The translations under genes were made by a program, and so were the position numbers. From contig OZ219790.1 of NCBI GenBank assembly GCA_964291215.2, forward strand, positions 2,400,001 to 2,464,000: 64,000 bases of DNA, given 5' to 3'. This document shows positions 2,487-33,579 of this stretch, one piece after another. Every line of letters begins with the position of its first letter. Position 1 is the first letter of the stretch. The notes beneath the pieces were generated by a model. That model was not told the DNA's origin and ran no database searches. It worked only from the letters and a program-made list of their open reading frames with translations. The DNA comes from Alphaproteobacteria bacterium (GTDB taxonomy: Bacteria; Pseudomonadota; Alphaproteobacteria; MPNO01; UBA830).

Positions 2487-2680
2487 CGGCGAGCGGGGCC
2501 ACGACCCCGCGATCCGGCCGGGGGCACTGGTCCTTGGACTGAAGAGCGAAATGGACCGCTGACTAAATTCGTGCAATGTTTCCACCGATTTCATCCGGCG
2601 TAGGCCCAAAAGGCTAGGTGTCAGTCGCGGGTGCCGCGAGGCGCTGCGGCGATCAGCCGATAAGGAAGAGGGAGGCGCAA

Positions 2681-2956: not shown

Positions 2957-2967
2957 GTCGGGATCCG

Positions 2968-3354: not shown

Positions 3355-5011
3355 TTGCGTGTCCGGGGTGGGCGCTGTAGTCCAGGATATTGCAGATTCG
3401 CTCGACCCCGCCGCCAAACCCGGTATATCCAGAGCCTCGTCAACACAAAAGGCTCCAGACAACATGTTCATCAGGGCAACCAAAACCCACAGCACCGCAG
3501 ACGGCAAACCCGTCCACCGGCTCGTGCTTTCTCAACGCATCAGCGACAAGGTCAGGCAGCGCACGCTGCCTCGGTACCGACTGTCCGGTGGCGCGCAAGA
3601 ACTGGAAGGAGGTTGCCGCCGAATCGCTGCTCCACGGCCGCCCGCCGCTGTTCGAAGCCGCGTGCAGGCTGCAGGACATCGTCAACAGGGGCCCCGGAGG
3701 TTCCGCGCCGACGCTCCAGAGGAAGACGCACGCAAATTGCGACCGTCAACCTCGACAGCCTCGAGAACCCGCGCCCGGTCGGCTGCCTGCGCCTCGAGGC
3801 GCGATCCCGGCTTCACGACCTCGGCATCACGAGTGCGCTGATCGTCGCCAGGATGATCCGCCAGCGAGCGCTGGCTGCGCGATGACAGCGCGGAGCTTCC
3901 GGAGGGCAAGGCGCGCAAGACGCCGTACCGCATAGGCGACCTGCGCCACCGGGCCGCCAGGAGCTGTTCAACCGTGAGCGCGCGCTGCATCCCCGACACC
4001 ATCGCATTTTACGACCTCACCAATGTTCACGGCCGCGCCGACGGCAAGCTTCCCCGCTTCGGGCGCTCGAAGCAGAAGCGCAATGATTGCCCCACGCTTG
4101 CACTCGACGGCGCGGGCTTTCGGCGCAGTTGCGAGGTCTTGCGGGGCAACGTGGCCGGGCACGGATGCGCTGCTGAGGCTAGAGGCGGGCGGCGAAGCCG
4201 ACGGTAGTCATGGACGCCGGCACCGAGGCGAACATCGCGTGGCGAGCACGGCTGGATCGCGGGCGGCGGCGCCCGAGGGTGGGCCCGAGGCTGATCACCA
4301 ACCACGAGGTGCAGGCGCCTTGCCAGCGAGGATGGCGCGGCGTGGTCAGCGAGAGCAGGAAGAGGGCCGAGGACGCCATTCCTGGCCGCAGGGCTTCGAG
4401 GCGGCAAAGCTCCACCTCCAAGGGCCGGCGCCACGACAAGGTGCCGGAGAGCGGTCTCGAGCAGCGCTTCTCCACCGTCGCCCGGCACTACGAGATCACC
4501 GTCGAGAAGGCCGGCGCCAACGCAACGGCCGTGCGCTTCAGCCACAGACGACAAGGCAGATGACAACGCGGGCGCCTGCGCACCAGCGACCGGGAGACCA
4601 TCCTCGGGACGTGGATCACGGATACCGAGGCCACCTTCCGTTCATTGAAATCCGAGCCCGGATTGCGCCCGATCCGGCTCGACCAGCGCATCGCCGCCCA
4701 CCTGTTGATCGCCGTGCTCGCCGCGGTGCATCTGATCCCCGCGCGGGGCATCGACAAGTGCTGGACATCAATCCGCGCGGAACCAGGGTCACCACGCGCC
4801 TGCGCCAGGCGCGTTGATCGTCAACCGACAGGACACGCACCGCCGAGGTCGCCGAAATCTCCTCGGCGGCTGGTGTCGAACCCACCGCACGAGGAGCCGC
4901 CTCACAAGCTGACAGAATTCAACGGAATGTAGTGCCATGTTGAAATCGGCCGACAAAAAAATCGCGCAACGTGATAAAAATTCCAGGCCGCAAAAAGTGC
5001 CAACTTGGGTT
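3247..5011 (+). mobile_element. IS1634-family element, transposase pseudogene
   Basis: 23 bp terminal IRs AACCCAAGTTGGCACTTTTTGCG; fragments MFIRATKT..HRLV.S.R...KVRQRTL, FYDLTN....FGRSKQKRNDCP, LKSE.GLRPI...AHL.IAVLA. Confidence 0.85.
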
Positions 5012-5348: not shown

Positions 5349-6027
5349 ATGTTGAATCCCACCAAGCGGAGCGGCGTTTCCCACTCGTTTTTTTCCGGTG
5401 GCCGTCATGGCCGGCGGATTGGCGGTCACAGGTCCCGCCGCAGGACAGAACGCGCCCGACGAAACCGCTCGCGAGGCTAAGCGGATCGAGTGTGTGGTAA
5501 AGGCGGGACGCCCCTTGGATTTCAAGCCGCTTACCCTCGGCTTCACGTTGTCCCTGTTGGGAAAGTCCGCGCTTAATCTCCAAAAGCGGGCATATGATAC
5601 GATAGTATACAACTACCCCTTACAACATTTCTTGAATCACAAAGAGGGGGTGAACTTGGATGACAAAGAGGGAATGAAGAAGTGGCTCAGTCGAATGAAT
5701 GCCTCGGGAGCTGGTAGCAGCAAGATCGCCTTGGTAACGCGGACCGCCGGAGATCAATACAAGGGCGTACCGCTAATGTGGGCAAGTATTTCGGAAAATT
5801 GCTCCATCGACATAGAGGGGCATCGGAACAAGCTGGATATCAGCGATGTCTGGTTAGCTAAGGGCTATGCGAGCGGCATGGTTCCCGCGACGACAACTCT
5901 CAAGACTTTCAAGCCCCTTGAAAAGTGCGGGAGGAACGCCAGCGAGGCTATTCTCTCTGTTGGGACTGGAAAGAGTAAAAAAAGGCGTAACTGCTCACCC
6001 CCTGGTTCCGGCTTGATGTCGGGGTAG
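5349..6027 (+). CDS. exported hypothetical protein, frameshifted at T7 (5388-5394), 3' end replaced by IS66 end
   Basis: GGAGG+ATG 5349 joins ORF 5398-6027 if one T is removed; signal-peptide-like N-terminus; lower GC; weak thermonuclease-like D.Y..../D....L.KGYA. Confidence 0.5.
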
Positions 6028-6084
6028 AGCAACGAACGGGTTTTCGTGGAGATTTTACACTGCAGGCCGATTCGTTTAGTGGTG
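5987..6084 (+). mobile_element. ~100 bp left-end remnant of IS66 (opposite orientation to adjacent copy)
   Basis: GTAACTGCTCACCCC... is the reverse complement of 7492-7592. Confidence 0.8.
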
Positions 6085-7592
6085 GTATCTACTCACCCCT
6101 AGTTGGGTTCTGATTGGCCGTAGTGCTCGTTGATGATGTCTGCGGCTTTTCCGTCGAGGGCGATCTGGGTGGCGACGAGTGGGTTGTAGCCGAGTGCGGC
6201 CATGGAGGTGAGGTAGCTTGAGCCTCGGCACCATGCTTTTGCGTGGAGCGGAAGCATCCGGACACCTTGACCTTTGCCATCCTGATCTTCTGTTCTCCGG
6301 CATTGTTGGTGAAGCTGACGTTGGGGTCGTCTGTGAAGCGCAGGTTTTCGTGTTTCACGAGACGTTCGTGCAGGTTGTGCGCGTCGGACTTGCGTCCACG
6401 TTTTCCTTTCGGCGGCGGCGAGATGTCGGGCAGTTCCTTGGCGCCCTGAGTGAGGATGGTGCGGTAGCGCTTGTGCACGGCCCGGCGGTCAGCCTCGTTC
6501 AAGGTTTTGGATGCGCTCTTGTTGATCTTGTGGCAGACCTCGCGGAGCAGGCTCTTCATCAGTCGCGCGGTAGCCTCGACGACAAAGGTCAGTTCGCGCA
6601 GCAGGTGGCTGCCGCACAGCTGGTGGCTACACTGGCCCATGTACGAGGCCCAGGACGCCCTTGTAGCACGGGCCGATCTCTTGCCCGCGCTTGCGGTGCG
6701 GGAACTTGCACGTCAGGGTCCCACGACATGGAGCCACTTGCTATTGATCCGAAATCGTCGACATCGGGCGTTGCAGGAGGTGCGCCACGGCAGCCTCCTC
6801 CCATGACGCATCGTGAAAGCATAGCCGAGGCCTCGGAGAGCTTGATGCCGGAGATCGCCTGCACGAGCGGCACGGCGCAGGGACAGCATCTGGGCGACCA
6901 GCAGGTTGATGACGAGGGCCTGGATGCCGTACTGCACGGGATGTTGTCGGGGAACCGGCCCTTGCACTTCGGGCATTCCTTGATCTCGGCGCGGCGCTCG
7001 ACGACCTCGAACACGATGTCGTAGAGGATGCAGCGCTCCCAATCGACGGGGCCGTCGGCGCCGCAGGCGTCGCAGGCCGCGACCGTCTCTTCGACGATGG
7101 TCTTGCACAGGTTGTCGCCCATCTGCCGGTTCGGCTTCGGGCCCTTGCTCCCGGCACGCTCTTGTCCGTCTGTGACGGCGGCAGACCGGAGTTCCGGCTC
7201 GTGCGTGGTCTTCTCCAGAAGGACGACGATGATGATGTCGAGCAGGATGACGAAGACGCGGATCACGGCCTCTTCCGCCACCTTGCCGGCAGCGCCGCGG
7301 TCTTGGCCGCTTCGAACTCCTCGCGCGCCGCCCGTCGCCATCACCCGGCCTTGCGCTTCATCAGCGCGCCGCTTCCGAGATGCGTTTCCACATACAGATC
7401 ATGCGGAGGCTGGAGCCCCGGAAGCAGCTGGCACAACCCGCCGTCGACTTCGATCCAAAGTAGCCCACTGGCGGTCCCCGTCGTTCTCGATTACCACCAC
7501 TAAACGAATCGGCCTGCAGTGTCAAATCTCCACGAAAACCCGTTCGTTGCTCTACCCCGACATCAAGCCGGAACCAGGGGGTGAGCAGTTAC
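6085..7592 (-). mobile_element. IS66-family element, degraded transposase plus Dam-like passenger fragment
   Basis: ends GTAACTGCTCACCC / GTATCTACTCACCC; HQLCGSHLLREL, FTNNAGEQKIRMAKVKVSGCFRS, CxxC zinc-finger remnants. Confidence 0.88.
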
Positions 7593-16995: not shown

Positions 16996-17026
16996 CTGTC
17001 CATTAGTCATAAATCCTGTCATAACG

Positions 17027-18460
17027 TATCTACTCACCCCTTGTTGGGTTCTGATTGGCCATAGTGCTCGTTGATGATATCTGCGGCTTTTCCGTCGAGG
17101 GCGATTTGGGTGGCGACGTGATGATTGTAGCCGAGTGCGGCCATGGAGGTGAGGTAGCTTGAGCCCCGGCACCATGCTTTTGCGTGGAGCGGAAGCATCC
17201 GGACACCTTGACCTTTGCCATCCTGATCTTCTGTTCTCCGGCATTGTTGGTGAAGCTGACGTCGGGGTTGTCTATGAAGCGCAGGTTTTCGTGTTTCACG
17301 AGACGTTCGTGCAGGTTGTGCGCGTCGGACTTGCGTCCACGTTTTCCTTTCGTCGGGATGTCGGGCAGTTCCCTGGCGCCCTGATGATGCGGTAGCGCTT
17401 GCGCCCGGCGTCGTTCAGGGTTTTGGATGCGCTCTTGTTGACCTTGTGGCAGACCTCGCGGAACAGGCTCTTCATCAGTCGCGCGGTAGCCTCGACGACA
17501 AAGGTCAGTTCGCGCAGCAGGTGGCTGCCGCACAGCTGGTGGCTACACTGGCCCATGTACGAGGCCCAGGACGCCCTTGTAGCACGGGCCGATCTCTTGC
17601 CCGCGCTTGCGGTGCGGGAACTTGCACGTCAGGGTCCCACGACATGGAGCCACTTGCTGTTGATCCGAAATCGTCGACATCGGGCGTTGCAGGAGGTGCG
17701 CCACGGCAGCCTCCTCCCATGACGCATCGTGAAAGCATAGCTGAGGCCTCGGAGAGCTTGATGCCGGAGATCGCCTGCACGAGCGCGACGGCACGGCGCA
17801 GGGACAGCATCTGGGCGACCAGCAGGTTGATGACGAGGGCTTGGATGCCGATGCCGTACTGCACGGGATGTTGTCGGGGAACCGGCCCTTGCACTTCGGG
17901 CATTCCTTGATCTCGGCGCGGCGCTCGACGACCTCGAACACGATGTCGTAGAGGATGCAGCGCTCCCAATCGACGGGGCCGTCGGCGCCGCAGGCGTCGC
18001 AGGCCGCGACCGTCTCTTCGACGATGGTCTTGCACAGGTTGTCGCCCATCTGCCGGTTCGGCTTCGGGCCGTTGCTCCCGGCACGCTCTTGTCCGTCTGT
18101 GACGGCGGCAGACCGGAGTTCCGGCTCGTGCGTGGTCTTCTCCAGAAGGACGACGATGAGGATGTCGAACAGGATGACGAAGACGCGGATCACGGCCTCT
18201 TCCGCCACCTTGCCGGCAGCGCCGCGGTCTTGGCCGCTTCGAACTCCTCGCGCGCCGCCCGTCGCCATCACCCGGCCTTGCGCTTCATCAGCGCGCCGCC
18301 TCCGAGATGCGTTTCCACATACAGATCATGCGGGGGCTGGAGCCCCGGAAGCAGCTGGCACAGCCCGCTCGTCGCCTTCGATCCAAAGTAGCCCACTGGT
18401 GGTCCCCATCGTTCTCGATGACCACCACTAAGCGAATCGGCCTGCAGTGTCAAATCTCCA
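17027..18460 (-). mobile_element. IS66-family element copy 2, left end cut by IS30
   Basis: collinear with 6085-7532. Confidence 0.88.
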
Positions 18461-19660
18461 CCCCACTTCCAGTCTGAAGTGCAACATCCGGCCCTCATCG
18501 CAGTGAGGGCGTAGCCCGAACGGAGATGAGGGCCGGATGTTGCACAAATTTTTCCCCTCTGCCCTTCTCGATTCCGCCTGGAAACAGCTTCAGTTCCTTC
18601 AACATCGAGCTTATGCAACGCCTTTGTCGGCTTCAAGCCACTATTTCGCCGTCGCGCGGCATGGACCCTGCTGCACGTTGCGGCTTTGGAACGCAGATGG
18701 TCAGCGCGGTTTCACTTCAAGATTACCTCCGTCGGCGATCCCAGGACTTTCCGAGTGTTGAGCCGCACCTTCTGAACATCTTCGTTGCATGTCGCGCGAA
18801 AGTCCGTGCCCTTCGGGAAGTACTCCCGCACCAGGCCGTTGGTGTGCTCATTCAAGCCGCGCTCCCAGGAATGGAAAGGCGAAGAAGAAATCTGCGTCAA
18901 GTGCGACACGCCTGTGGTCTGCGAACTCCTTGCCGTTGTGATTGTGTGGACCAATAGCGCACCAGAGCCGAGCAGGCGGATCATGACCGAACCGACCGTG
19001 TCTTTCTGTCCACCCGGCAAGGTGTATTTCGTGGCACGAGCGACACGACAGCTCCACTGTGAGCTTTGCCGATGATGGCTCCCAGTCGCCGATCCGTTCC
19101 TTTGCCTCCGCAGGGCGCTCGGAAATGTCCACCCGGCCAGAATGGCATCCGCCCTTCCAGTTCGGCTTCTTGCCGCGCCGCCGAAGCTTCTTCCACAAGA
19201 CGCCCCCGGCTCTCCGATCTTCATGAATGCGATCATAGATCCGTTGCCGACCCACTGGGCGGCCCTCCAGTCGAAAACGGCCGCTGATCTGCTCGGGGCC
19301 CTCCCGCAGCTTTTTCTGAGCTTCAGCCCGAGGCGTCAACCGCCAAGAAACAGACGAGGCGGCCCTGCGTTTCTGCCATCCTTTGCGCCTGCTTGTGACG
19401 ATAACCCCGTCCCCCGGTGTTGCGCTTGATCTCCCGGAAAATTGTTGATCGGCCCAGCTGCCGAGCAATCGCACCTTGTGAAAGACCGCTTTTCTGCCTC
19501 AATCTGGCATCGCTCTTCGTAGGTGACGGTAGCCTTTGGACATGAACAAGCTCCCTTCATCTTGTACAGGAACTCTCGCCGCTACCGCTCCGCAACATCA
19601 TGCGTCTAAAAACACATGGCCACAGCCCATCATGTGTTGCACTTCACTATGGAACGGGGG
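18461..19660 (-). mobile_element. IS30-family element copy 1 (degraded)
   Basis: ends CCCCACTTCCAGTCTGAAGTGCAACA / TGTTGCACTTCACTATGGAACGGGGG; STIFREIKRN, ISERP....R.GDWE, SWERGLNEHTNGLVREYFPK. Confidence 0.9.
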
Positions 19661-19930
19661 TGTTCGAGCAACACATAGAGGCGCGCCTCGTGGCCGCTCC
19701 TCAGCCTGACCCGGAAGAGCGCGTCGCACTGGGTCCGCGCGGCGTTCTCGTCGACGAAGCTGCCCTCGACCGCCTCGGGCGGGGCCTCGGAGTCGAGGAG
19801 GGCTGCCACCTCGGGTGGCAGGTATTCCGCGAGCAGCGAAGCGGCGCGGGCCGGCTCGGAGACCAGCGCCCGGAACAGCGCATCGTGCGGCGTCGCCGGA
19901 AGGCTCACCGGGAAAGACCTCCGGCATCGT
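19661..19930 (-). pseudogene. Rpn/YhgA-like PD-(D/E)XK nuclease N-terminal half, cut by IS30
   Basis: TPHDALFR...GSFVD......DALFRV.......YVLLEH. Confidence 0.85.
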
Positions 19931-20060
19931 CTCCGGGAGGCTCCCGACGGACAGCCCGCTCGCGGGCCGGAAGAGGAAGGACGTTCGACATGACGGCACC
20001 CTAAGCGGGAACATCGGGTTCGCAATCGCCGGTGCCTGCCTCGGGGACAGGCCGGAACCG

Positions 20061-20200
20061 TCATGACGGGCGGTAGTCCCTGAGGATATCGGCGGCAATG
20101 CTGTCGGAGACGCGGACGGCGGACCCGCGCACCGGGCCTTGCGCCAGATGCGCATAGCGCGCGGTAGTGGAAGGACTCCATGCCGCATTCGGCTGATTTC
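20061..20200 (-). pseudogene. integrase C-terminal remnant
   Basis: STTARYAHLA..PVR.SA.RVSDSIAADI. Confidence 0.65.
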
Positions 20201-20377: not shown

Positions 20378-21060
20378 ATGACCACCGGAAACGAAACCAG
20401 ACGCGTGGCGGGCGCGGCCTCCGGCCCGACGCCACGGCGCCGGCGAGGGGAGGCATCCGTGACGGAGACCGGGGACGGCGTCCTTGCCTGGAAGGTTCTC
20501 CGGCAGGTCGTCGAATACGGGAAAGCCTGGCGCCGGCACGCCGCCGGCGTGTCGGACGTGCCGGAACCTGGTCCCTTCCCCATCCGGACGGAGGCCAACC
20601 TGGCGGCGGAGCGGTTCGAGATGCTCGCTTGGGAAGACCCCTGGAAGGCGGACGGCCCCGCCTCGCCCTTCTGGCGTCAGGACGGGATGCCGGAGGGCGT
20701 GCCGGAGCCGCTGCTCGGGCTGATGGGAGGCGCGGTCGAGGGGCTGCGCCTGCTCGGCGGCGGTCTGGTGCTCAAGATCGAACATGGCGGAGCGGCGGTC
20801 CGGATCGACCTCGGGAATGTGGTGCGGTTCCCCGACGACGGCGGCATTTCGATCAGGTATCCGTTCGGGCTGCGAATGCCGCTGTCGGTCCGGCGCCTTC
20901 TCGACTTCTGGAACGTGGCGGGTCTTCCGGTCCTTCGGAACGGGCAGGGTCGGGAGGCACGGTTCGCGAGATCGACAGGCTGATGACGGTGCTGGCCGGG
21001 CTCTGGGCCGGCAAGACGCCGCGCGGGATCGCGGAAGACATCTGGGGCAAGGGGGCTTTC
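20378..21060 (+). pseudogene. DUF6499/DUF2285-like ICE activator remnant
   Basis: AW..LR...Y..AW, EDP......PFW, and out-of-frame L..L.G...GKTPR.IA..IWG. Confidence 0.6.
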
Positions 21061-21089
21061 AACCAGACGGGCTTGAGTCACCATTCATG

Positions 21090-22310
21090 AGGCCTTACAT
21101 AGTGGCCCATGAGGATCGGCTTTCGACATCTGTCTGCGAAGACGGTTGACTGGGGGGCGTCGGCTGCCGAGGGCAGCACGCCCTGGCGCGGGGATTGTGC
21201 GAGCGCGAGGACTGGCGCAACGCGAAGGGCGAGCTGTGTCTTGCCGCGTGCGGGTCTGCCTGACCTTGCTGCGTCGCTCGACATCGTTCTTCCTGCACCA
21301 AGGCCTGATGCCTTCGGCACCCTTGAGCGGGACTATCCCGACAAGCTCCTCGCCTGTTCTCTGGAGGACCTTGGAGAGGTCACCTTGGAGCCTGTGGGCG
21401 AGGACAAGCGCCCGTTCGATGATGGCGACCTGGCATCCCGAGGCGTGCGCACCCGGGTGAGCTACTGGATCACCTCGTCGCGCCACGGTCGCCTCGGCGG
21501 CCTGGTGTTTGGTGCGGCGAGTTGGCACCAGAAGGCGCGCGACGACTTCTGGTCCCAGGGAGCCCGTGTCCTCGGCGAGATCGTCAACAACGATCGCTTC
21601 CTGATCCTTCCATCGTGTGAAGGAGTTGGCCTCCCATGCCCTGCCGGCGTCTGGCTGCGGACTGAGAAGTACGGGGTAAGGCCGGTACACGTATGTGGGT
21701 CCCGAGCACAGCGGCGTGAGCTACCGGGCGGCGGGCTGGGAGCGCTGTGAGGAGATGACCTCGGGTCGACCTCCCGGGGCCACTGGCCCGGGCGTGCAGC
21801 GGTCCGTATTGATGAAGCCTCTGGCGCGCCGTGCCGGGAGCGTGTCGGCGCCCCTTGTCGGCGGTGACAGCTGGGCGATGAGGGAGTACGCCCTCAGCAG
21901 CCACAGTGACGTGCGCATCCGCGAGCGCCTTGTCACCATGGGCGTGGGACGATCGTCCCGGCGAGATCCTGCCGACGATCTTCCCCGGCGAGGCGGAGCA
22001 GAAGGCGGCCTACCGCTTGTTGTCGAATCCGAGGGTGATCATATCCTCGAGGAGCACTAGGAAGCGATGGTGGAACGCTGCCGTTCGCAGCGCCTGATTC
22101 TTGCCATCCAGGACACGACGTTCTTGAATTACAATGGCTTGGAGGTGGGTCTTGTCGACATCGGCGGCTCGGGCGCCCTTGGCATGGCGGCCCATGCCGG
22201 GGTTGCCTTCAGCGAAGGCGGCTCATCCCTCGGCCTGTTCCATCTCGACGCCGACTTCCGCCTCAAGCCAGAAGAAGGACGAGGCAGACGACAAGGAGAG
22301 CCGGCGCTGG
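21090..22310 (+). mobile_element. degraded IS4 (IS50/Tn5-like) transposase with N-terminal DUF4338-like domain
   Basis: GRLGGLVFGAASWHQKARD, IVNNDRFLILP, G.SYRAAGW; then KAAYRLLSNP, ILAIQDTTFLNY. Confidence 0.78.
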
Positions 22311-22322
22311 GGGGGGGGGGGC

Positions 22323-23575
22323 GGAGGTACTGTAACTTGATGTCTGGAAATTTGTCTGAGGTTTGCGCTTTGAGGCGTTTCACTGGGGGGCTAGCCCCCC
22401 AGTGAAACGCGGCGCCATCGTGCTATCCCATGGAGTTGGAAAACCTTCATGGAGGAAGCGAATGGACCTGCGACACACTACGACGATCTGGACTGTTTTG
22501 GAACATCTGATCGCAAACGGAGCAACGGATCTGGGGCGGGTCTTTGGTCAGCTCTTCGAGCTTGCGATGCAAATCGAGCGCGAGCAGCACTTGAAAGCGG
22601 GCCACCGGACACCGGAACGACAGGGCTATGCCAACGGCTACAAGCGGATCGACACCCCCACTGTTACCGTTCAGGTGCCAAAGACGGCCGCTCACGGGGA
22701 CGATCCGTCCCCAGTCGCTTGAACGCGGCCAGCGATCTTCTCGCGCCGTGGCCGAGATGTACATCAAGGGTGTTTCCACGCGGCAGGATGTAATGCGCGA
22801 GTTCGGGAGCCTGTCCTCTTCTCAGGTCAGCCGGGCCACCAGGTTGCTCGATGAAGAACTCGCCGCGCAACCGGCCCCTGATGAAATACCTGATCCTGGA
22901 TGGCACTATGAAAAAGCCCGCCATGACGGCGTTGTGCGCGATGTCGCAGTGCTCTCGGCCATCGAATAGGGGCTGCAGGCACGTTCTGGGGCTCTCTGTG
23001 GCGCTCTCCGAGGCCGAGGTCCATTGGAGAGCCTTCCTGGAAAGCTTGCTAGCCCTGCATGGTACGACCTTCATCGTCTCGGATGCCGGGCTGAAAGCAG
23101 CACGACGCGCGGTGCTGGGCGCGGCGACGTGGCAGCGCTGCCAGTTCCACCTGGCGCAAAACGCCGTGCACCGAACAACGACATCAGGAAACGTATTGGA
23201 AAACAGCTCAGAGCCACGCCTCCTCACTCCAAACCGCCGAGGCTGAACTGGCCGCCCTCGTGGCCAGCTATCGCGACAAGCATCCAGGCTTCCTGGCTGG
23301 AAAACAATGCGGGGCTCGCTGTCTTCACCTTGCCCGATGCTCACCGCAAACGTATGCGAACCTCGAACGGCATCGAGCGACCGATCCAGCAAGAGCTCAA
23401 GCGGCGCACCTCCAAAGTCAGGGTCTTTCCGAACCTCGCCTCGTTGGAGCGCCTCTCAACTGCAGTCCTCATCGACGAAAAATGGGAAACCGAAACCAAG
23501 GCATACATCAAATGGGAACAGCTCGATGACTGATAGCTTCACGACAATTTCCAGACATCAGATTGCGTAATCTCC
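22323..23575 (+). mobile_element. IS256-family element (degraded)
   Basis: IRs containing TGATGTCTGGAAATT; EMYIKGVSTR, WQRCQFH, RTSNGIER..QELKRRT...RVFPN. Confidence 0.9.
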
Positions 23576-23639
23576 ATGACATCATCGATAGCAGATCCAC
23601 ACCAAAAAAACAATCTATTTTGGCGCGAGCCCTAAGGAG

Positions 23640-23908
23640 GAACTTTAGCCCGAATTATTCACGAGCCTGCTGTGCATTGATCGTCGCGTGCGTGATCGGC
23701 CGGGTTGACGGCGAGGGTTCGATCTGGACTTGAAGGACGCGTTGGGGGTTGATGGGTGTGGTTCGTACCGCGGCTTGCGCCGCGCCGGTCACGGGCCTTG
23801 CGCGTTGATGCGCCCCCGCGGCCAGCAGGACAAGCATGTGGCGGTTCGGGAAGGCCGTCGGCAGGGCGATCCTGATTCTTGTTTTCAATTGCTCGACACG
23901 CACGGCGA
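23640..23908 (-). mobile_element. IS1380-like 3' fragment
   Basis: IAVRVEQLKTRIRIALPTAFP. Confidence 0.55.
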
Positions 23909-24720
23909 CCGTGGGTCGGCAACGGATCTATGATCGCTGAAGATCGAAGAGCCGGGGGTGTCTTGTGGAAGAAGCTTCGACGGCGCGGCAAGAAGCCGAA
24001 CTGGAAGGGCGGATGCCGTTCCGGCCGGGTCCCTGTGGACATTTCTGAGCGCCCTGCGGAGACAAAGCAACGGGTCGGCGACTGGGAGCCATCATCGGCA
24101 AAGCTCACAGTGGAGTTGTCGTGTCGCTGGTTGATCGTGCCACGAAATACACCTTGCCGGGACGGGTGGACAGAAAAACCGCAGACACGGTCGGTCATAA
24201 TGCTCGGTTCTGGTGCGCTATTGGTCTACGTCAGACAACGGGGTTCGCAGACCACAGCCGTGTCGCTGAAGCACTTGACGCAGATTTCTTCTTCGCCTTT
24301 CCATTCTTGGGAGCGCGGCTTGAATGAGCACACCAACGGCCTGGGAGTACTTCCCAAAGGGCGCAGACATTCGCGCGATATGCAACGAAGATGTTCAGAA
24401 GGTACAGGATCGGGTCAACACTCGGAAAGCCTTGGGATCGTCAACGGAGGTAATGTTCGACCTTGAAGTGAAACCGTCCTGACCATCTGCGTTTCGAAGC
24501 CGCAACGTGCAGCAGGGTCCATGCCGCGCGACGACGAATTAGTGGCTTGAAGCCGACAAAGGCGTTGCATAAGCTCAATGTTGAAGGAACTGAAGCTGTT
24601 TCCAGGCGGAATTATGAGGGGCAGAGGGGGAAAATTTGCGCAACCCGGCCCTCATCTCCGTTCGGGCTACGCCCTCACTGCGATGAGGGCCGGATGTTGC
24701 ACTTCAGACTGGAAGTGGGG
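23909..24720 (+). mobile_element. IS30-family partial copy 2 (3' two thirds)
   Basis: homologous to 18461-19255; retains segments deleted in the other copies. Confidence 0.88.
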
Positions 24721-24746
24721 ACATATGAGCTTGCTGTTCTGCGGAT

Positions 24747-25271
24747 TCAGCCAGCGTGAGGAAGGCGGCCGGAACCGCGAAGACGCGCCAAAGCATCATT
24801 CAGCGCCCGCGCCAGATCCTCGCGCTCCCCAAGCGTGAGAAACGCCCCGATCGTTAGCGACCGGCCGTGACTCGTCAGGACGAGCTCTGTCCTGTGGGGA
24901 GACAGCGTCCGGCATTCGACCCGCAACCACGACGGCTGGAACCGCCAGCGCGTCGACGCAGCCGAAGGCGCAACCCGCTCCACGGTCAGCACCCGCTCGC
25001 TGAGTTGCACGATCTCGTGCGTCCTGGCCCACCTGTAGTTCAGCCGGAACAGCAGATAGATAAGCACAACATCAAGACCGAAAAATCCCATGACCGGCCA
25101 CGCGCCCATAAGTGTGAAAGTCAGGCCGACACTGAAGCTCGTCACGCCGATCACCAACATCAGGATCACGAACCCCCGGCGGTCAAGGCTCGTATTGGGG
25201 CGGAGGATGGCGTCGAACAGGTAGCGGTCGCCATCTCTTCGCGAGCGTCCGATGGAACGAGTGTCGTTCAT
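24747..25271 (-). CDS. DUF2244 membrane protein
   Basis: LRPNTSL..RGF, GAWPVMGFFGLDV, IGAFL...ER..LA. Confidence 0.88.
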   Translation of the reverse strand: MNDTRSIGRSRRDGDRYLFDAILRPNTSLDRRGFVILMLVIGVTSFSVGLTFTLMGAWPVMGFFGLDVVLIYLLFRLNYRWARTHEIVQLSERVLTVERVAPSAASTRWRFQPSWLRVECRTLSPHRTELVLTSHGRSLTIGAFLTLGEREDLARALNDALARLRGSGRLPHAG

Positions 25272-25384
25272 ACCCGAATCATAGGAAAGTCTGACTGTAA
25301 GTCAAACCCGGAAGGCGCCGTCGGCACCGTTCTCTCCGTCATCAGCCCGGTGACGCAACACACGCCATGACGCGAGGCCTAGCC

Positions 25385-27514
25385 CTGCCTATTAGTCACA
25401 AATCGCGCAGGGCATGATTATGTCCTTGCGATGTCGGCTCCAGATCGAGGGCATCGAGCAGGCATTCATAGGCCAGCGCCGCGGTGGCCAGTCGCGGATA
25501 GCCACATCGTCTGGTCGCCCAGTAGCGGATCATGCTTGCGGTTCAGATATCCGCCGAGGATCGCCACCAGCTTCACCGCCGCCCCCAGCGTGGGTCCAGC
25601 CGGTATCGCCGGGCATAGTCACCGAGGAATCGGAGTTCCAGGTCCGAGAACAAGCAGTCGGGCTTCATCGTCGGCACGTCCCGCCCGAGCAGGGTCATCA
25701 GGGCAAGACGCCAGGCGATCACGGCATGGATGGTGATCTGCCGTTCCAGCCGGCAGGCCTTGCGCGTCGCCAGGTGCTCCACCCGGCAGCCGGACTTAAG
25801 CACCCGGAACCAGCAGCGCAACACGTACCAGCCGACGACCTCCCGCGCCGCGTGGTCCACCGGAAGGTCGGTCAACAGGAACCATTCCACCGGAGCTTCC
25901 CCGGCCGGCGGGTCCGTCTCGAGGAGATGCAGCGCGGTCACGGGCGCCGCATCGGGGCAGCCGGCAGCGCGGTCGACAACCAGCGCAATTCCAGCACCGC
26001 GTTCCGCCGGGGAGTGCGTTGCTTCTTGCGCCCCGAGGACTTCGGCCGGGCCGTCAGGCGGGGAATGTCGATCTGCATGGTGCCGCGGCAGGCGCGCAGC
26101 CGGGCAAACAGCTTCGCAGCCCCGCGCTTGAGGACCCGGTCATCCGCATGAGCATCGACAGACGGCGATGTTGCCGGTCGAACAGTTCGAAGAAGTCCGC
26201 TTCCCGCACGCACACGACCTTCACCCCGGTCGTCCGGGCCGCGAGGTCGTCGAGACCGTCGAGCCAGCGCTGCGACTTGCGCCGGGACATCTCGGTATCC
26301 TCGCCCGGGGCGCGGAGGAGCGTCGAAGGCAAGACGCGCCAGCGGCAGGCCTTCGCCGCTGACGACGTAGCTGGCGTGCAGGTACAGGGTCTGCGAGGCC
26401 GTCTGGTTCGTGCCGATGATGCCCGACCGTCGCAGACGAGTCGCGAAGTTCAGGTCCGTCCCGTCCTGAATGCACAACGCTACCCGCGCATCCGCTGCAC
26501 CGTTCGCTGACGGTGCGGCGCCAGGATGTTCGCCGGGGTCACCGCCGACATCTCTGGCTGATCCAGGAACCGATAACAGACCGGCAGGATCCGGGCGCCT
26601 GCTGCAGGACGACATCGGGCTCTCTCCCTGTCTTCGTGCAATCTCCACCAGGCGTGCGCTCAAACGCCGATCGGCGTTCCCCCGAACTCGTGGTGCGCCC
26701 ACATCGATGCCCTCCCCCGGGGACAGGGCCGGCTCCGCCACCCCCAGCTTCCGCCGCCAGTCCCGGTCCAGAACGTACATGTACACCGCCTTGACACTCT
26801 CGGCCATCTCGCGTGCGCGGTCCTGGCGGCCCCGGGTGAACCCCACGAGCTGCCGCCCGCAGGCTCGCACCGTCGGGTCGACACAGGTCTCGACCAGCCA
26901 GGGCAGGAACCTGTAGCGCTGCGAAACATCGGCGCGCAGGCGAGACAGGCACATCGACAGCGTCTTCGACGCAAGGTTCGGAACCGGCACCCGGATCAGA
27001 AACCGGCTCATCGACAACACCCGGTGCCGTTCCGCACGACGCTGGTCGGCATCCGATCTAGGCATCCCGATCCGCCACCTTCAGCGCCGCTGCCGCAAAG
27101 CCGAAACCGCCGAGACAGCCGTGAGCGGAATCCACCAGATAGCGCAGCTGATGACCGGCCAGGGTGGGGGCGCCGAGAAAGTGCTCCCGCGCCATCAGTT
27201 CGTTCCAGTGCGCCCGTGCCCGACGCCGCCGACCGGACGGCGCTGGCAAGCTCTCGATCCTGCCCTGCGATGCAAGCTGCTCCAAGGCCAACGACACAGC
27301 TGGATACCCGTCCCCGTGCGTCCCGCAGGCCGAAGTGCCGGCACACTACCAGCGCCAGGCGGTTTCGACTACTATCGCCGCTCTCGGTCACGATCGATTG
27401 CAGGCGATCGAGCTGGTCCTTGAGGACGCGTTTGATCGGAATGTGCGCTTCCATGCAGGGCACGGTGCACCATCCGAATTATCTCGTTCAGCACGATTTG
27501 TGACTAAAGGGTAG
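25385..27514 (-). mobile_element. IS50-like IS4 element with DUF4338-like domain; both ends present, ORF degraded
   Basis: IRs CTGCCTATTAGTCACAAATCG / CTACCCTTTAGTCACAAATCG; flanks GCCTAGCC / GCCGAGCC; CIQDGTDLNF, VCVREADFFELF, WFLLT, FRVLKSGCRVE. Confidence 0.85.
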
Positions 27515-27522
27515 GCCGAGCC

Positions 27523-29065
27523 CTGCCGTGTAGACATAAATCTACTAGGCGATGGTTTTTTGGCGATGCCCGCTGCGCCTGCCATGTTGGCGGGATTTAG
27601 GCGCGGTTCGGCTGCTGTCGCCGGCTTGAGCGGCGAGCGCGGGTGCAGCGGCTCGGGTAGCAAAAGACCCACTGAACAACTCCGGCGCGAAGAGTCGCGG
27701 CATGGCACAGTCACAGATTCAGTCCACGCGCGGCGGAGCCCCGGATTGCCGCGATTCTGGCGCGGGAGCGGTTTGGCAGCCGCCACACGCTCGGCCACCG
27801 TCTGTGCGAGGATTCAGGGACCGGCGGGCCGTTTGCAGCTTGCCGGTTGTCTGAAGGCTCTGCGGGCTCTGGGGGTGCGCTCGGAAGCAATTGTCCTTCC
27901 ACCGCCGCGGGCGGAATCGGTGCGCCCGTCGCTTCTGGAGACGCCGATAGCGCCTGCGGAGGGAGTTCCGGACCGGCTTTCGGAGGTTTGAGATTGCAGC
28001 GGTGGACACGCGCGCGGGCCGCCGGGTGTGGAACACGCTGATGACATACGAGCATCCGCGTGACGATGTTTGCCGGCTGCGCTATCTCGTTGGCTCCGGG
28101 CATGGTCTTTTGAGCGCAGTGGGGATTTCTGCCGCCGCGACTGTCGGCACGCGACCGGGGGTGGGACGAAGCGCAGCGGCGGGACAATCTTGACCGGATT
28201 GTCGGTCTGAGTCGTTTCCTGATCCGGCCGGGTGTTGCCAACCTTGTCAACCATGTGCTGGGGCGTGTTCTGCGGCGTCTGCCGAGGGACTCGAGGTGCG
28301 TTACGGTTTTCGGCCGTGGCTTGTCGAAACGTTTCTCGAGGATCAGGGGGCGAGCCTGCGCACGGCGAACTGTGTGCGTATTGGCGCGACGGCGGAGCGC
28401 GGCCGTCAGGATCGCGAGAACCGCGGCCGGTGAATTCATGTACGCGCCAGCGGCGGCGTCTGGGGGTTCCGGAGGCGGCGCCGGCGCTCGATCCAGGCGA
28501 GGGGCTTGGCGTGTGAGCGGCGAACGAGTTTAGAGGTGCGCGGTTGGGCGACAAGCGGTTGACGGCGCGGCTGGTCAAGAGCGCGACGCTGGCGTATCCG
28601 GGGTGCGCGCAATGTCGAGAGCGACGAGGCTGCGGTGAACGGTTTCTACCGGCTGATCGAGCATCCTGCGGACGTGACGGTCGAGAACATCCTCGCGCCG
28701 CACCGCGAGCGCACGGGCATGCGCGGACAGTCGACGGTGCTCGCGATGGCGCCGGTCTGAACTTCACGCGTCGTCCGTACGGCCTGCAGATCATCGGCAA
28801 GAACCAAACCGGCGCCCTGGGATTGCACCTGACGCTTGCGGTGAACGGGCTGCCGCTCGGCGCGCTGCGCTTCGACAAGGCGGACAGCGCGCGCAAGACC
28901 CGGCGCTGGGGCTCGAGGACACGCTCCGGGCGACGCGCGCGCTGACGCGCAAGACGCGGATGATCGCGGTGTGCGAGGCCGACTGTTTCGAGCAGTTCGA
29001 TGCCGGACGCCGCGGGTCGAACTGCTGGTGTGGGCCAAGCACGACCGCTGCCTGGCCGGCGAACC
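27523..29065 (+). mobile_element. IS50-like IS4 element with DUF4338-like domain, 3'-truncated
   Basis: end CTGCCGTGTAGACATAAAT; WNTLM..EHP, LRYLVGS.HG, SRFLIRP, GDKRLTARLV, GLHLTLAV.GLPLG. Confidence 0.75.
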
Positions 29066-29670
29066 AAGGTGATCCCATGCTTGTTGATGTGATGTGATCG
29101 GAGTCCTGATCGCGGCGCGGGTCGACGCGTTCGAGGCTGCGATTTTGAGATTTTCTGACGTGCTGTTACGGCGCGGGGCGCGATTGGTCGGCGTATCCGG
29201 GGCGAGCGAGAGGCCTTGGTTGCCGGGCTCGAAAGCTTGCAGTTTCTGTCGGGGAGAGAGGCGCGGTCAGCCTGGTCTTGTGATTGCGTGCAGGACCTGC
29301 TTGCGCTTGTTGGCATAGTGGCGTCGACGAAGCTGTTGAAGGGTTTGGGCAGCTTGCGTTTGTTGCGGATGATGACGGCGAGGGTGATCGCGTTGTTTGC
29401 GGGCGAGTTCGGAGCATGGAGTCGTCTTCGCGGAAGGTGGCATCGCGGACATGATGATGGCTCTCGACTACCCAGTGTCCGCGATTCCATGCGAGCAACT
29501 GTTGCGGCGAGGCGCGTTCGACCGAGCATCCATGTTTCTTGGCAAGGTTTTTGCGGGTGTCTGTGGTGATGTTTTCTGTGGTTGTCCACAAGCGGTATGG
29601 GATTTGCTCTGCGAGCGAGGCGACATGAAGCTTGTGGTCCCGGCGGCGGGTTGCCGTCCATTGGTCACGT
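29066..29670 (-). mobile_element. ISAs1-family transposase 3' part (degraded)
   Basis: LLAWNRGHWVVE.HH.RD.TFRED. Confidence 0.8.
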
Positions 29671-29879
29671 GAACGCGGCTACCTTGCCGTCCCCGGGCAC
29701 GTGACCGTCCGGGTCCAGGTGTCCCAAGGCGGTTCGATCTCCTCAATGTCGGCCTCGACGATGATCTGCAGACATTCTCCCCAAGTCGTGTCGTAGAGGG
29801 AGACTGTCGAGACAGTCCCGATCGCGCTCTCGGCAGGGCCGTGTCTCCTTCGCTCGCTCACCGGTGCTTCAGGCAACGC

Positions 29880-30720
29880 TGCTGTCGCAGCAAGGTGTTC
29901 GCCAGAGCTTGCGCATCACGGCGACAATCGCGACCTTGCTTGCCGGCAGTCTTGAGGCGCACCAGGTCCGCGTTGAAGCGGGCCGGTCGCGGCCATGAAC
30001 AGGAGATCATGTGGCCTTCGGCGCCCGCCTCGGATATGCCGAGCACCGTGGTCGTTGGCGCCACCCCGATCAAGGCTGCCGACGCTGCCGAGTTCGGGCA
30101 TCCAGAAGGGCCGCGGCGGTCACCGGACCGGGGATCGAGGTCAGGGTACCTCTGCTCGGGATCACCGGCGATCACCGCTTTGATCGCCGCGCCGGCAATG
30201 CGGTCATCGAGATCGGCCGCTGAGGCCCTTGTGACGGTCTCGCCATCCACCTCATCTGCCACCTGCTTGGCGTCGACAAGCGCGGCACCAGGAGATCCTC
30301 CAGGCTCTTGAGGAAGGCGGAGCCACAGGCTCAAGATCGCCCAGCCGATCTTGGCGTCGACGCGGTTGGCCCATCGCCTCGGCGAAGCGCCCGCAACGGG
30401 TTGACGAGAACAACCTCGAAGCCCCGGTCATGAAGACACTGGTGAACCTTGTGGTGATAGCGGCCTGTCGCCCACCACCCGGCTCACCCCGAGGCCGCGA
30501 AGCCACCTGCCCGTGGCGTCGTTCGCAAAACAATGCGCCAGATGTCCAGACTGGCTGACCCCTGCTACTACCTTGACCATCGCTCCTCGCCTTACGATGA
30601 TACGGGTTCAAACCCAAGCATCCAGCGAGGGACGTCAAGGGAGGTTGCCAAACTCGGACGCGGCTCTGTCAAGGGTCAAAACGGCAACCTCCGCGGAGAT
30701 CCTTTGATCCCCGCTCCCCT
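29880..30720 (-). mobile_element. IS110-family remnant with upstream non-coding end
   Basis: RFAEAMG, AALIGVAP, HIRGGR...LLFMAA, RFN.DL..RL..AGK. Confidence 0.55.
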
Positions 30721-30829
30721 GTGCATGTTCGCTCAGGGGAGCGTAATCTCTCTGCAACCATAGCTCTCCCACAGATCCACATTTTCCCGCCCCCAACGCT
30801 GTGGATGATTTCATCATCAAGGGGACAAA

Positions 30830-32123
30830 ACCTGGTCATATGGCGTGTTCGGTTTTCCGGATTTCCTGAATTCGACGCGCCGGGTGACGCGGAAGATCTG
30901 CTTGACTAGTTGATCATCTTCGCCAGCGGGGTGAAAATGGTGCGCTGGCGGCCATGCGCGGGCTTTTCGTTGTAGCGTTGGCGGTCTTCCAGTTGATGCT
31001 CTCGAAGGTGCGTTGCCCTTGACCATCAGTCCGCGCGATGGGTCTCGATGATCAGCCTCGCGGGTGGTGTGGAGCGCGTCGAGGGTGAGCAGACGGCCGT
31101 CGCGGCGTGGACGGCAGCGATCTCCCCGCCGTGACAGTTGAGGATCGAATACCGGCCAGCGAGACCGTCTCGTAATGATCCTCGCCGGTGCGCTTGCCGT
31201 CGACCGCGTTGCCGACCTGCGGCTGCGCGCCGCGTCCTCAATCCATCCCGGGTCGGTAGCACCCGGTACACGGTGGAGACCGACTTGTCCCTGTTCTTCC
31301 ATGCTGCTCCAGCTCCTTCTGCGTCGTAGTGCGCCGCCGCAACCGCACCGTGCCGGTTCGCAAGCCAGCAAAATCACGCACAGCACCGAGGCGATGCCCC
31401 TGCGCACGCCGGAAAGCGCCGCTGATAAATCGAGCGCAACTCCTGCGCCGACCAGCGGCGCCCGCAACTCCCACGCCACAGGAAGCGGCGAACGATCCCG
31501 CAGCCGACATCGCGACGCAGCGGAAACACGTAAAGATCCTTCGCCTCCCCGGTCGGTATAGCGCCCGCTGGCGCGCGCATAGCTCCTGCCAACGCACTCC
31601 CAGTTCGCCGCCTTGTACATGGTGCCGCTGAACTTCGTCGGCAAGACAAACGACTCCGCAACAAGCAACGGCAGCCTCCCAGTCGCCGCCGCACCATCCG
31701 CGACAACGCAAACGAGGCAAGGCCCGGAAACGACCACCAGGAACAACAAACCTCGTGTTGTTCCCGGCAACCGCCTGAACTGTTCCTCGCGGCGCCAGCC
31801 AATCCAACGGGTGCGCAGCTGAGGGCGCCCGTCTGCCAGCCTGCAGTGCCAATCCACCGCCCGCGCCAGGTGAACACGCAGACCTCGACCGGCAAACTGC
31901 TTGAAACCAAGATACGGTCAACGACACGGTTCCAGCGACATCAGGCCGCGCAAGGCGCACAACCACATCCCGGAGCGCAAAACCCTCCGGAGTCGTCTCA
32001 AAAAAATCCGCTGCCCCCACGACAACGGATACTACGCCGCTTCACAAAAAGCCAGCGAAAATGCGAATCATCCTGAACAAGCAAAACCGACCCTTCCAAC
32101 AAACCTAGCGTGGGATCGCCGTG
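30830..32123 (-). mobile_element. ISAs1-like element with N-terminal DUF4338-like domain (degraded)
   Basis: RWIGW, ESFV.PT.FSGTMYKAANW; then LLTLDALHT, MVKGN.P, VKQIFRVTR; end CACGGCGATCCC. Confidence 0.7.
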
Positions 32124-32401
32124 CCGGCGAACGGAAGCTGTTCGCGACTGTCAGCTTCGGCCCCCGCTGCGGGCCTGGTCGAATGCCTCGGCGAGCGCGG
32201 TAAGTCGAGCAAGGCCAAGCTGCGCGCGCAAAGCGTCTTACGCTTTTGCAAGGCCACCCTGCCGGCCACTGTCGAAAAGCCGGTCTCGGCCGTCCACCTC
32301 ATCAAGCGCAACCCGCCCGGCAACGAGGACCCGATCCAGTGGTTCCTGCTCACCACCGTCGACCACGCCGCAACCGCCGCCGAGATGATCGGATATTACC
32401 T
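32124..32401 (+). mobile_element. IS4 (IS50-like) internal fragment
   Basis: NPPGNEDPIQWFLLTT......A.EMIGYY. Confidence 0.7.
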
Positions 32402-33579
32402 CCCCACTTCCAGTCTGAAGTGCAACACCCGGCCCTCATCGCAGTGAGGGCGTAGCCCGAACGGAGATGAGGGCCGGATGTTGCACAAATTTTTCCCCTC
32501 TGCCCCTCTCGATTCCGCCTGGGAACAGCTTCAGTTCCTTCAACATCGAGCTTATGCAACGCCTTTGTCGGCTTCAAGCCACTATTCCGCCGTCGCGCGG
32601 CATGGACCCTGCTGCACGTTGCGGCTGCGGAACGCAGATGGTCAGGGTGGTTTCACTTCAAGATTACCTCCGTCGGCGATCCCAGGACTTTCCGAGTGTT
32701 GAGCCGCACCTTCTGAACATCTTCGTTGCATGTCGCGCGAAAGTCCGCGCCCTTCGGGAAGTACTCCCGCACCAGGCCATTGGTGTGCTCATTCAAGCCG
32801 CGCTCCCAAGAATGGAAAGGCGAAGAAGAAATCTGCGTCAAGTGCGACACGCCTGTGGTCTGCGAACTCCTTGCCGTTGTGATTGTGTGGACCAATAGCG
32901 CACCAGAGCCGAGCAGGCGGATCATGACCGAACCAACCGTGTCTTTCTGTCCACCCAGCAAGGTGTATTTCGTGGCACGAGCGACACGACAGCTCCACTG
33001 TGAGCTTTGCCGATGATGGCTCCCAGTCGCCGATCCGTTCCTTTGCCTCCGCAGGGCGCTCGGAAATGTCCACCCGGCCGGAATGGCATCCGCCCTTCCA
33101 GTTCGGCTTCTTGCCGCGCCGCCGAAGCTTCTTCCACAAGGCACCCCCAGCTCTCCGATCTTCGGCGATCATGGATCCGTTCACGGCCTTCCAGTCGAAA
33201 ACGGCCGCTGCTCGGGGCCCTCCCGCAGCTTTTTCTGAGCCTCAACCCGAGGCGTCAACCGCCAGGAAACAGACGAGGCGGCCCTGCGTTTCTGCCATCC
33301 TTTGCGCCTGCTTGTGACGGTAACCCCGTCCCCCGGTGTTGCGCTTGATCTCCCGGAAAATTGTTGATCGGCCCAGCTGCCGAGCAATCGCACCTTGTGA
33401 AAGACCGCTTTTCTGCCTCAATCTGACATCGCTCTTCGTAGGTGACGGTAGCCTTTGGACATGAACAAGCTCCCTCCATCTTGTACAGGAACTCTCGCCG
33501 CTACCGCTCCGCAACATCATGCGTCTAAAAACACATGGCCACAGCCCATCATGTGTTGCACTTCACTATGGAACGGGGG
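32402..33579 (-). mobile_element. IS30-family element copy 3 (degraded)
   Basis: same ends and body as copy 1. Confidence 0.9.

Follow-up and report, generated by a model that had tools for sequence, protein, structure and literature searches.

Why would insertion sequences (ISs) of different families place the same domain ahead of their transposases, and what might that domain do? The question is raised by the window, a stretch of 64,000 nucleotides from an Alphaproteobacteria bacterium (OZ219790.1, positions 2,400,001 to 2,464,000), which carries four IS elements each with a DUF4338 domain: three IS50-type or, for E1, IS50-like elements of the IS4 family (E1 to E3) and one ISAs1 element (E4).

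Four decayed elements and their shared domain

All four elements had been predicted, with the domain ahead of the transposase and inside the IS ends, and all four were found (Table). The ends proposed at 25385 (E2) and 27523 (E3) were recovered; the left end of E1 had been placed at 21090 instead of 21056, the end common to copies. For E4, the predicted 30830 delimits only the portion beyond the nested element, and the whole element extends from 32123 to 29065. The motif list that accompanied the prediction was a composite over copies, the window containing no intact copy. The two IS families, described as unrelated, are distinct (NF033590 versus NF033564), but "unrelated" is too strong because both transposases match PF01609.

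Table. Coordinates of the elements and their DUF4338 coding remnants in the window
Feature	Position	Strand	Evidence
E1, cut-off, frameshifted IS4-family element of a second IS50-like lineage	21056..22306	+	Left end common to copies; PF14236 and PF14706 fragments
E1 DUF4338 coding remnant, frameshifted	21380..21830 (approximate)	+	tblastn to the L018 and L120 proteins
E2, full-length but frameshifted IS50-type element, 2130 bp	25385..27514	-	Inverted repeats and target duplication
E2 DUF4338 coding remnant	26745..27220 (approximate)	-	PF14236 fragments, E 4e-6 and 0.0018
E3 left part, frameshifted IS50-type element	27523..29064	+	Left repeat common to copies; aligns with 1-1460 of a complete 2157-bp copy
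E3 right part, DDE continuation	32124..32403 (start about)	+	Aligns with 1446-1724 of the complete copy
E4, ISAs1-family element inside E3	29065..32123	-	Sharp ends across copies; 16-bp inverted repeats (13/16 match), 9-bp duplication
E4 DUF4338 coding remnant, some 80 bp in from the end of the element	31500..32041 (approximate)	-	tblastn to the 586-aa copy L015
Nested decayed element inside E4	29522..30841

E1 contains, in order, an N-terminal helical domain, DUF4338, Tnp_DNA_bind and the start of the DDE domain. A complete 2118-bp copy aligns with E1 as far as 22306, the right side being interrupted by an IS256-type element (PF00872), and two complete genome copies bear 9-10 bp duplications. 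The E2 target duplication is 8 bp long with 7/8 bases identical, and tblastn on E2 covers DUF4338, the DDE domain and the dimerisation domain. The left part of E3 holds the N-terminal helical domain, DUF4338 (about 27990-28430), Tnp_DNA_bind and part of the DDE domain; E3 was split at 29064 by the insertion of E4, and its right part is ended by a further multicopy element. Forty-one genome copies of E4 retain both ends. The element nested in E4 is presumably IS110-like, judging by motif resemblance.

All four window copies are dead pseudogenes. In the first 1250 nt of E4, each of the 28 deletions recurs in 5 or more of the 40 copies compared (E4 itself among the 40), and because the deletions are common to other copies the decay of E4 is real. 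Long housekeeping ORFs in the window retain their domains, with Pfam matches in 10 of the 12 scanned. An assembly artefact as the source of the frameshifts was ruled out for E4 by the shared deletions and the intact housekeeping ORFs. Dead ISAs1 copies evidently multiplied in this genome all the same; therefore neither transposase nor domain need come from the moving copy.

Window fragments match PF14236 (DUF4338) weakly. Among 22 ORFs scanned, three gave matches (E 4e-6, 0.0018 and 0.023), the best at 26.7 bits, under the curated cut-off of 27; none exceeded the cut-off, and E3 and E4 gave no match at all. The fragments align by tblastn (down to 3e-79) with near-intact copies elsewhere in the same genome, which match PF14236 at 1e-20 to 1e-37. 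All six near-intact genome proteins exceeded the cut-off, at 74-130 bits, in agreement with the predicted identity of the domain. In total, this genome has 41 PF14236 matches.

PF14236 bears the name DruA and the domain is also found on the defence protein DndF, which could make the elements a kin of Druantia DruA, carried as anti-phage cargo to the benefit of the host. We regard this as highly improbable. Druantia type I comprises a full-length DruA in an operon with DruB-E. Here the neighbours of the domain are transposases, and PADLOC DruA models match short stretches only (E 5e-4 or weaker; at most 126/407 positions across the genome). About 29 kb separates the single DUF1998 helicase match from the closest PF14236 match, and neither a Druantia operon nor druB-E neighbours were seen in the genome, despite its 41 matches. 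The elements are not a Druantia system, and the DruA link made in the original prediction extends to the shared domain and nothing beyond it.

Intact fusions across IS families

Single-ORF fusions, for which a search had been proposed, proved common. The architecture PF14236+PF14706+PF02281 was found in 118 of the 120 top homologues of the IS50-type protein, and PF14236+PF13808 in 115/120 homologues of the ISAs1 protein. DUF4338 was also fused to a second IS4 lineage (NF033592-type), and in IS66 it forms a separate gene within an element enclosed by inverted repeats. Among 78 GTDB loci, 48 had inverted repeats and an 8-11 bp duplication flanking the gene, and 47 had at least 540 open codons. 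Intact homologues thus lie inside IS ends, not outside them. Intact relatives of E2 and E3 encode a DDE/YREK transposase with Tn5-type DNA-binding and dimerisation domains, a YREK-like motif being present in 112 of 114 IS50-type sequences; for E1, a relative matches NF033590 and PF14706 above cut-off.

Conservation of the domain is no weaker than that of the transposase (median dN/dS 0.29 for DUF4338 and 0.39 for the transposase; 148/171 pairs, 19 ORFs). The domain is dispensable at the level of the IS family: of 824 plasmid records with a match to the ISAs1 protein, only 2 span 80% of that protein, and most are without the extra N-terminal residues. Domain lineages follow IS lineages.

In the IS50 and IS66 forms a predicted helix-turn-helix-like domain precedes DUF4338. 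Foldseek returned no match to this N-terminal domain at E<=0.001, and in VIA the best Z was 5.2, mostly to HTH or winged-helix proteins; the result is no more than suggestive of a helix-turn-helix-like nature.

The original prediction also counted an IS66 Dam fragment among the candidate DNA modifiers. A motif-level remnant of about 43 codons is present, but the window piece has no methyltransferase match in Pfam or PHROGs. The Dam-like N-terminal motif recurs across the genome in 142 copies, of which 89 have a length of 43 residues. A PF02086 scan for this remnant gave nothing above cut-off, and one longer remnant matched phrog_56 (E 0.0016). That the piece is a short Dam remnant is weakly supported. 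A better third IS family is IS66 with DUF4338 itself, a combination absent from the prediction.

Host Dam methylation regulates IS50 and IS10 by marking DNA. The DUF4338 domain might likewise modify DNA to regulate transposition, by placing marks on the ends or promoter of the element itself or on its target sites, a reading that we consider unlikely. It would fit the covalent fusion to three kinds of transposase, the helix-turn-helix-like domain in front (weakly, with Z up to 5.2), the parallel domain and IS lineages, and the Dam-like remnant on another IS66-like element in the window. It is opposed by IS66, in which the domain is a separate gene, by ordinary family members that work without it, and by the multiplication of dead-domain copies, which fits action in trans and gives no sign of control in cis.

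Predicted fold and possible function

A Mom-like GNAT fold had been proposed, and the AlphaFold model of the domain has a GNAT fold (pLDDT 86.7) with phage Mu Mom as the closest solved structure. Among 48,161 chains, the best VIA match was Mom 8bv8_B (Z 14.3, rmsd 4.4, 169 aligned; next Z 12.0). Foldseek gave 335 matches at E<=0.001; by E-value, ordinary acetyltransferases among the matches listed stood ahead of Mom, which was in fourth place with the highest query TM-score of those listed (0.53). At the sequence level, PHROG 1384 (Mom-like) was listed for 8/9 proteins (best E 7e-6), and in the Atlas the three nearest non-PF14236 clusters include Mom-family members (scores 0.87-0.89; a lead only). 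Comparison by hhalign was weak (probability 29.8, 0.6 and 2.3 in three set-ups). The Mom family PF25680 reached at best 17.3 bits (E 0.0038), under its cut-off of 27.1, in one of seven domain-bearing proteins scanned, and across the genome gave a single weak match of 16.4 bits, also under cut-off. A PDB sequence search with the IS66 protein gave no match.

Mom carries out a Gly-tRNA-dependent adenine modification in DNA that evades restriction, and R111, S124, R151 and a 35-residue HTH-like insertion (175-209) are essential for its activity (PMC13219725). Counterparts of Mom residues were sought in 317 sequences (114 IS50, 106 ISAs1, 97 IS66). They were mapped by motif, without residue-level superposition, because the N-terminal half was misplaced when aligned automatically with Mom; MAFFT and hhalign failed to reproduce the R111 mapping. 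By motif, equivalents of R111 and of S124 (as S/T) were present in 317/317, of H58 in 314/317 and of D149 (acidic) in 297/317. R151 has no exact counterpart: an R stands one position later in 61/106 ISAs1 and 95/97 IS66 sequences, and the 114 IS50 sequences have a gap. Y59 was kept in 193/203 and Y159 in 199/203 of the ISAs1 and IS66 sequences, and both were replaced in the IS50 set. In place of the 175-209 insertion is a basic segment of 19-20 residues with no predicted helix. The classic acetyl-CoA motif was absent in 317/317.

According to the Mom paper, GNAT substrates cannot be predicted from structure (PMC13219725). An acyltransferase acting on protein or tRNA, not DNA, as a toxin, an addiction module or a modifier of transposase or a host factor, would suit the generic fold with its hundreds of non-DNA GNAT matches, the missing R151 and Mom-specific insertion, and the suggestion that DUF4338 fused to DndF could target proteins (Rakesh 2024). 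We think this distinctly unlikely: Mom ranks above other GNATs in VIA, the acetyl-CoA motif is missing throughout, and a single ORF nearly fills the ISAs1 elements of about 2.1 kb, which leaves little room for an antitoxin gene. A catalytically inactive module of the transposase, binding nucleic acid or serving a structural role, would account for the basic charge of the domain (mean net charge +13 to +16) and for the two tyrosines lost in one IS50 clade. The chances of this reading are small, given that R, S/T, E and H do not vary at the pocket positions in three families and that the domain occurs as a stand-alone gene.

The reading that we prefer, while holding it somewhat short of probable, is that the domain is a Mom-type DNA-modifying enzyme, likely shielding element DNA from restriction. 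The intact ISs would then encode an accessory domain of predicted Mom-type GNAT fold that is an active enzyme, with DNA as its substrate and a charged tRNA, not acetyl-CoA, as group donor. It would attach aminoacyl or acyl groups to DNA bases, and element-bearing DNA would then resist restriction on entry to a new host, anti-restriction being the benefit. The fusion or the helical domain may direct modification to the element. In favour of this reading are the many intact fusions inside IS ends, the fold match to Mom, the Mom residues mapped by motif, the missing acetyl-CoA motif, and the selection on the domain and its net charge. Against Mom-type shielding stand the weak sequence similarity to Mom, the Foldseek E-values that place ordinary acetyltransferases first, the R111 mapping that MAFFT and hhalign did not recover, the lack of an exact R151 counterpart together with the replaced insertion, the tyrosines replaced in the IS50 set, the caution in the Mom paper about predicting substrates, and dispensability at the family level. 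Transposases are usually poorly expressed, and for this reason genome-wide shielding fits badly. That several IS families independently incorporated a tRNA-charged DNA hypermodification enzyme as an integral component is conceivable, though on balance we lean slightly against it.

If the domain is active, a DNA hypermodification enzyme would be built into simple ISs, with a bearing on how ISs pass restriction barriers or time their own movement. Such ISs would bring with them a base-modification chemistry of their own, for anti-restriction or self-marking, and a large share of the extensive "DruA" family would be transposon machinery and not anti-phage defence; in many cases a gene annotated "Druantia DruA" is part of an IS. 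Natural relatives of Mom, whose chemistry has only recently been solved, would number in the thousands (6,711 representatives at E<=0.001). The value rests in the family, the window copies themselves being pseudogenes, and the Tn5-like transposase offers a direct test system. None of the titles or abstract openings retrieved in literature searches describes the fusion; Iyer 2009 and Iyer 2013 may mention Mom-transposase links. The supplements of PMC10853773 and PMC13219725 could bear on prior description of the fusion.

Comparison with known systems

Druantia type I DruA shares PF14236/DUF4338 with the present domain and differs from it in the weak partial PADLOC match, the transposon context and the enclosure by IS ends. 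Mom (PDB 8bv8; PF25680; PMC13219725, PMC7261163) resembles it in its GNAT fold, as the best VIA match, in being encoded by a transposing element, and in motif-level counterparts of H58, R111, S124 and D149, to which the ISAs1 and IS66 forms add those of Y59 and Y159. Identity to Mom is about 14-15%, and the DUF4338 domain bears an extra RDxWxxW segment. Mom is a late phage gene, whereas the DUF4338 domain is fused to transposases or carried by IS66.

With the IS50/Tn5 subgroup of the IS4 family, elements of the E2 and E3 type share PF14706, DDE, PF02281 and 8-bp duplications, within the 8-9 bp of the subgroup. The ends of E2 and E3 agree with its consensus (Table 1 of PMC2266710); those of E1 begin CT and fit partially, with duplications of 9-10 bp. 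Copies in this genome that are complete, though decayed, measure 2.1-2.3 kb versus a typical 1350-1550 bp (PMC2266710), because of about 300 extra N-terminal residues. The ISAs1 likeness comprises NF033564 above cut-off, PF13808+PF01609, short inverted repeats and 8-10 bp duplications, the DUF4338-bearing form differing by about 220 extra N-terminal residues. ISs with passenger genes are known from the IS231 subgroup (PMC2266710). They have in common with the present elements extra coding DNA inside the IS ends; here, by contrast, the cargo is a single enzyme-like domain that recurs, is in most cases an in-frame fusion and is selected like the transposase.

Four decayed elements and their ends

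Sequence with at least three copies in the genome under study (G000; 6.15 Mb, 99% complete) made up ~53% of the window (G000:C1:2400001-2464000). Domains were intact in the window's long ORFs for housekeeping proteins (EPSP synthase, cytidylate kinase, S1, OMP decarboxylase, HSP90); IS copies were riddled with small deletions. The original prediction placed one DUF4338 domain type inside the ends of four elements, and this was borne out: its motifs were dispersed across reading frames in all four (six-frame translation), all four aligned to near-intact genome copies containing PF14236 (DUF4338/DruA), and the element ends enclosed the domain in each. Extents were revised, with the left end of E1 at 21056 instead of 21090 and the predicted 30830 of E4 replaced by the boundaries in the table. 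A Pfam scan of 22 window ORFs detected PF14236 in E1 and E2 only, below threshold. The genome contained 41 PF14236 matches, and 14 of 14 control genomes contained none. Near-intact genome copies were single open frames, either of 793 codons (DruA, Tnp_DNA_bind, DDE_Tnp_1, Dimer_Tnp_Tn5) or of 670 and 586 codons (DruA, DDE_Tnp_1_assoc, DDE_Tnp_1).

Mobile-element features of the window
Feature	Position	Strand	Remarks
MPTase-PolyVal zincin-like metallopeptidase domain (PF18818)	1-729	+	
Decayed IS66-like element (also at loci L107, L108)	6000-7500; 17000-18400	-	Dam-like motif at 7462 and 18390
Fragment of YhgA/Rpn-like Transposase_31 (PF04754)	19633-20181	-	
E1 (IS50-type)	from 21056, truncated near 22306	+	ends compared across copies
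E2 (IS50-type)	25385-27514	-	8-bp target duplication
E3 (IS50-type)	from 27523, interrupted by E4	+	ends compared across copies
E4 (ISAs1-family)	29065-32123	-	9-bp target duplication; nested element 29522-30841 inside

The ends of E2 and E3 matched the IS50 end consensus, as excerpted from De Palmenaer (2008; PMC2266710). E3-type copies had 8-bp CTAG-centred target duplications (window 25377-25384 and 27515-27522; G000:C2:2372184, 3520341 and 3528223; C1:2087202), several of them within the palindrome of an IS256-type element, and E3 was inserted directly in the target duplication of E2. The MPTase-PolyVal domain is typical of polyvalent proteins from mobile elements.

In total, 41 E4-family copies had both ends; 22 had a target duplication and one kept the 586-codon frame. 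Relative to the 586-codon copy, the first 1250 nt of E4 contained 28 deletions, each occurring in at least five of 40 compared copies (E4 itself counted). In E4, at least, decay is of biological origin; because its deletions are shared, dead E4-family copies appear to have been multiplied by proteins supplied in trans. Genome-wide, IS decay consisted of many small deletions, mostly 1-12 bp, inherited across copies, and ISAs1 copies that were dead nevertheless went on multiplying, with new target duplications. The nested element, putatively IS110-like by motif resemblance, was carried by 18 of the 41 copies, and in 17 of these its distance to one end was nearly constant; this position could reflect co-transposition or repeated site-specific insertion into another IS.

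A Dam fragment had also been predicted in an IS66 element. The very high-copy IS66-like element (~140-190 copies) did start with a Dam-like motif. In 89 of 142 copies this was a stub of 43 residues, and library matches to it were weak; it is plausibly a relic of a putative methyltransferase.

Intact fusions and their distribution

Intact single-chain fusions, which the original prediction proposed to seek, were common. Of 7,995 candidates scored against the IS50-type protein, 3,152 were hits; among the best 120, 118 contained PF14236, PF14706 and PF02281 in one chain, mostly of ~780 residues. The ISAs1 protein had 691 hits among 7,996 candidates, with PF14236 and PF13808 in 115 of the best 120. 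The best 78 GTDB loci for this form belonged to MAGs with the labels Alphaproteobacteria, Pseudomonadales, Spirochaetia, Acidobacteriota, Binatia and others; 47 had 540 or more open codons, and 48 had both inverted repeats and a duplication of 8-11 bp, most of the latter being ~2.1 kb long. Only two of 824 plasmid records matching the ISAs1 protein covered 80% of it; therefore, the domain is accessory at the ISAs1-family level.

IS66, the third IS family with the domain, encoded it as a stand-alone 293-residue protein (7,331 hits among 7,999 candidates) whose gene overlapped the end of the transposase gene within the inverted repeats. This very large, highly conserved family included L016:5133-6011 (-), L109-L113, L121 and L122 among retrieved loci. 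Adjoining the L016 copy, positions 135-4751 encoded a 1538-aa protein, repeat-rich and surface or autotransporter-like by eye. Four of 30 relatives searched had the domain, three of them from the same genus. In same-genus genomes it stood beside IS66 transposases and was also fused to an NF033592-type IS4 transposase (L114:1486-3657, L124:372-2591); L114 was the best Pfam Mom match observed. Domains clustered by IS lineage in a 29-sequence FastTree (supports 0.97-1.0), which would fit old, stable partnerships.

Among 19 distinct intact ISAs1 ORFs, the domain had a median dN/dS of 0.29 and the transposase one of 0.39 (148 of 171 non-independent pairs). IS50 fusions had mean identities of 0.70 (domain) and 0.69 (DDE core). 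Judged by substitution ratios, the domain is under purifying selection.

The predicted link to Druantia DruA held for the shared DUF4338 domain only. PADLOC DruA models gave weak matches over short stretches, and the sole DUF1998 helicase hit of the genome was separated by ~29 kb from the closest match to PF14236; a Druantia system was rejected. A role as defence cargo is considered highly unlikely. Available portions of the PADLOC paper and PMC13639185 do not mention the fusion, and PMC12458937 contains none of the terms searched. A DUF4338-transposase fusion inside the ends of known IS families is apparently undescribed in the searchable literature.

Predicted fold and comparison with Mom

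The predicted Mom-like GNAT assignment was upheld at the level of modelled fold. AlphaFold gave the ISAs1 domain (pLDDT 86.7, 89 sequences) a predicted GNAT fold. Its best VIA match was phage Mu Mom, with Z 14.3 and rmsd 4.4 over 169 aligned residues, ahead of the next at Z 12.0. Foldseek placed Mom fourth by E-value, yet with the best query TM-score among the matches listed. In the viral structure library (BFVD), top matches were uncharacterised phage proteins and a protein named Mom was ninth. Phage 'endonuclease-like' proteins and a Faunusvirus protein (rows 3, 13-18, 27) were also structurally similar, in agreement with the Mom-nuclease fusions described in PMC7824862. PHROG 1384 (Mom-like) was matched by eight of nine, then three of four domain-bearing proteins. 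Direct sequence evidence of kinship is weak: hhalign probabilities against Mom were 29.8, 0.6 and 2.3, and the HMM score was 9.4 bits (best of 2,000 shuffles, 4.6). DUF4338 in DndF fusions was previously called GNAT, according to excerpts of Rakesh (2024; PMC10853773).

Silva (2026; PMC13219725) shows that Mom moves glycine from Gly-tRNA onto N6 of adenine, and that R111, S124, R151 and an HTH-like insertion are required; the word stem 'transpos' is absent from that text. Mom is also covered in PMC7261163. By motif, 317 proteins (114 IS50, 106 ISAs1, 97 IS66; 43 of 360 hits dropped on length) were mapped onto Mom. R111 and S/T124 were present in 317 of 317, H58 in 314 and an acidic residue 149 in 297; Y59 and Y159 were retained in the ISAs1 and IS66 forms and replaced in the IS50 set. 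R151 had no exact counterpart in the mapped proteins. In the IS66 form the first ~80 residues, which align with the IS50 forms, were predicted as three helices with weak HTH-type matches. The acetyl-CoA motif R/QxxGxG/A was missing from all 317.

We infer that the domain may modify DNA, with a benefit. Anti-restriction modification is the tentative choice; self-regulatory marking is unlikely, acylation of protein or tRNA is a doubtful alternative, and an inactive module is very improbable. The Mom-like reading of this IS-borne domain is directly testable. Compared with Mom, the domain scored below the Pfam cut-off for PF25680 and had a 19-20 residue segment in place of the HTH-like insertion (175-209), but it is Mom-like in predicted fold and pocket residues.
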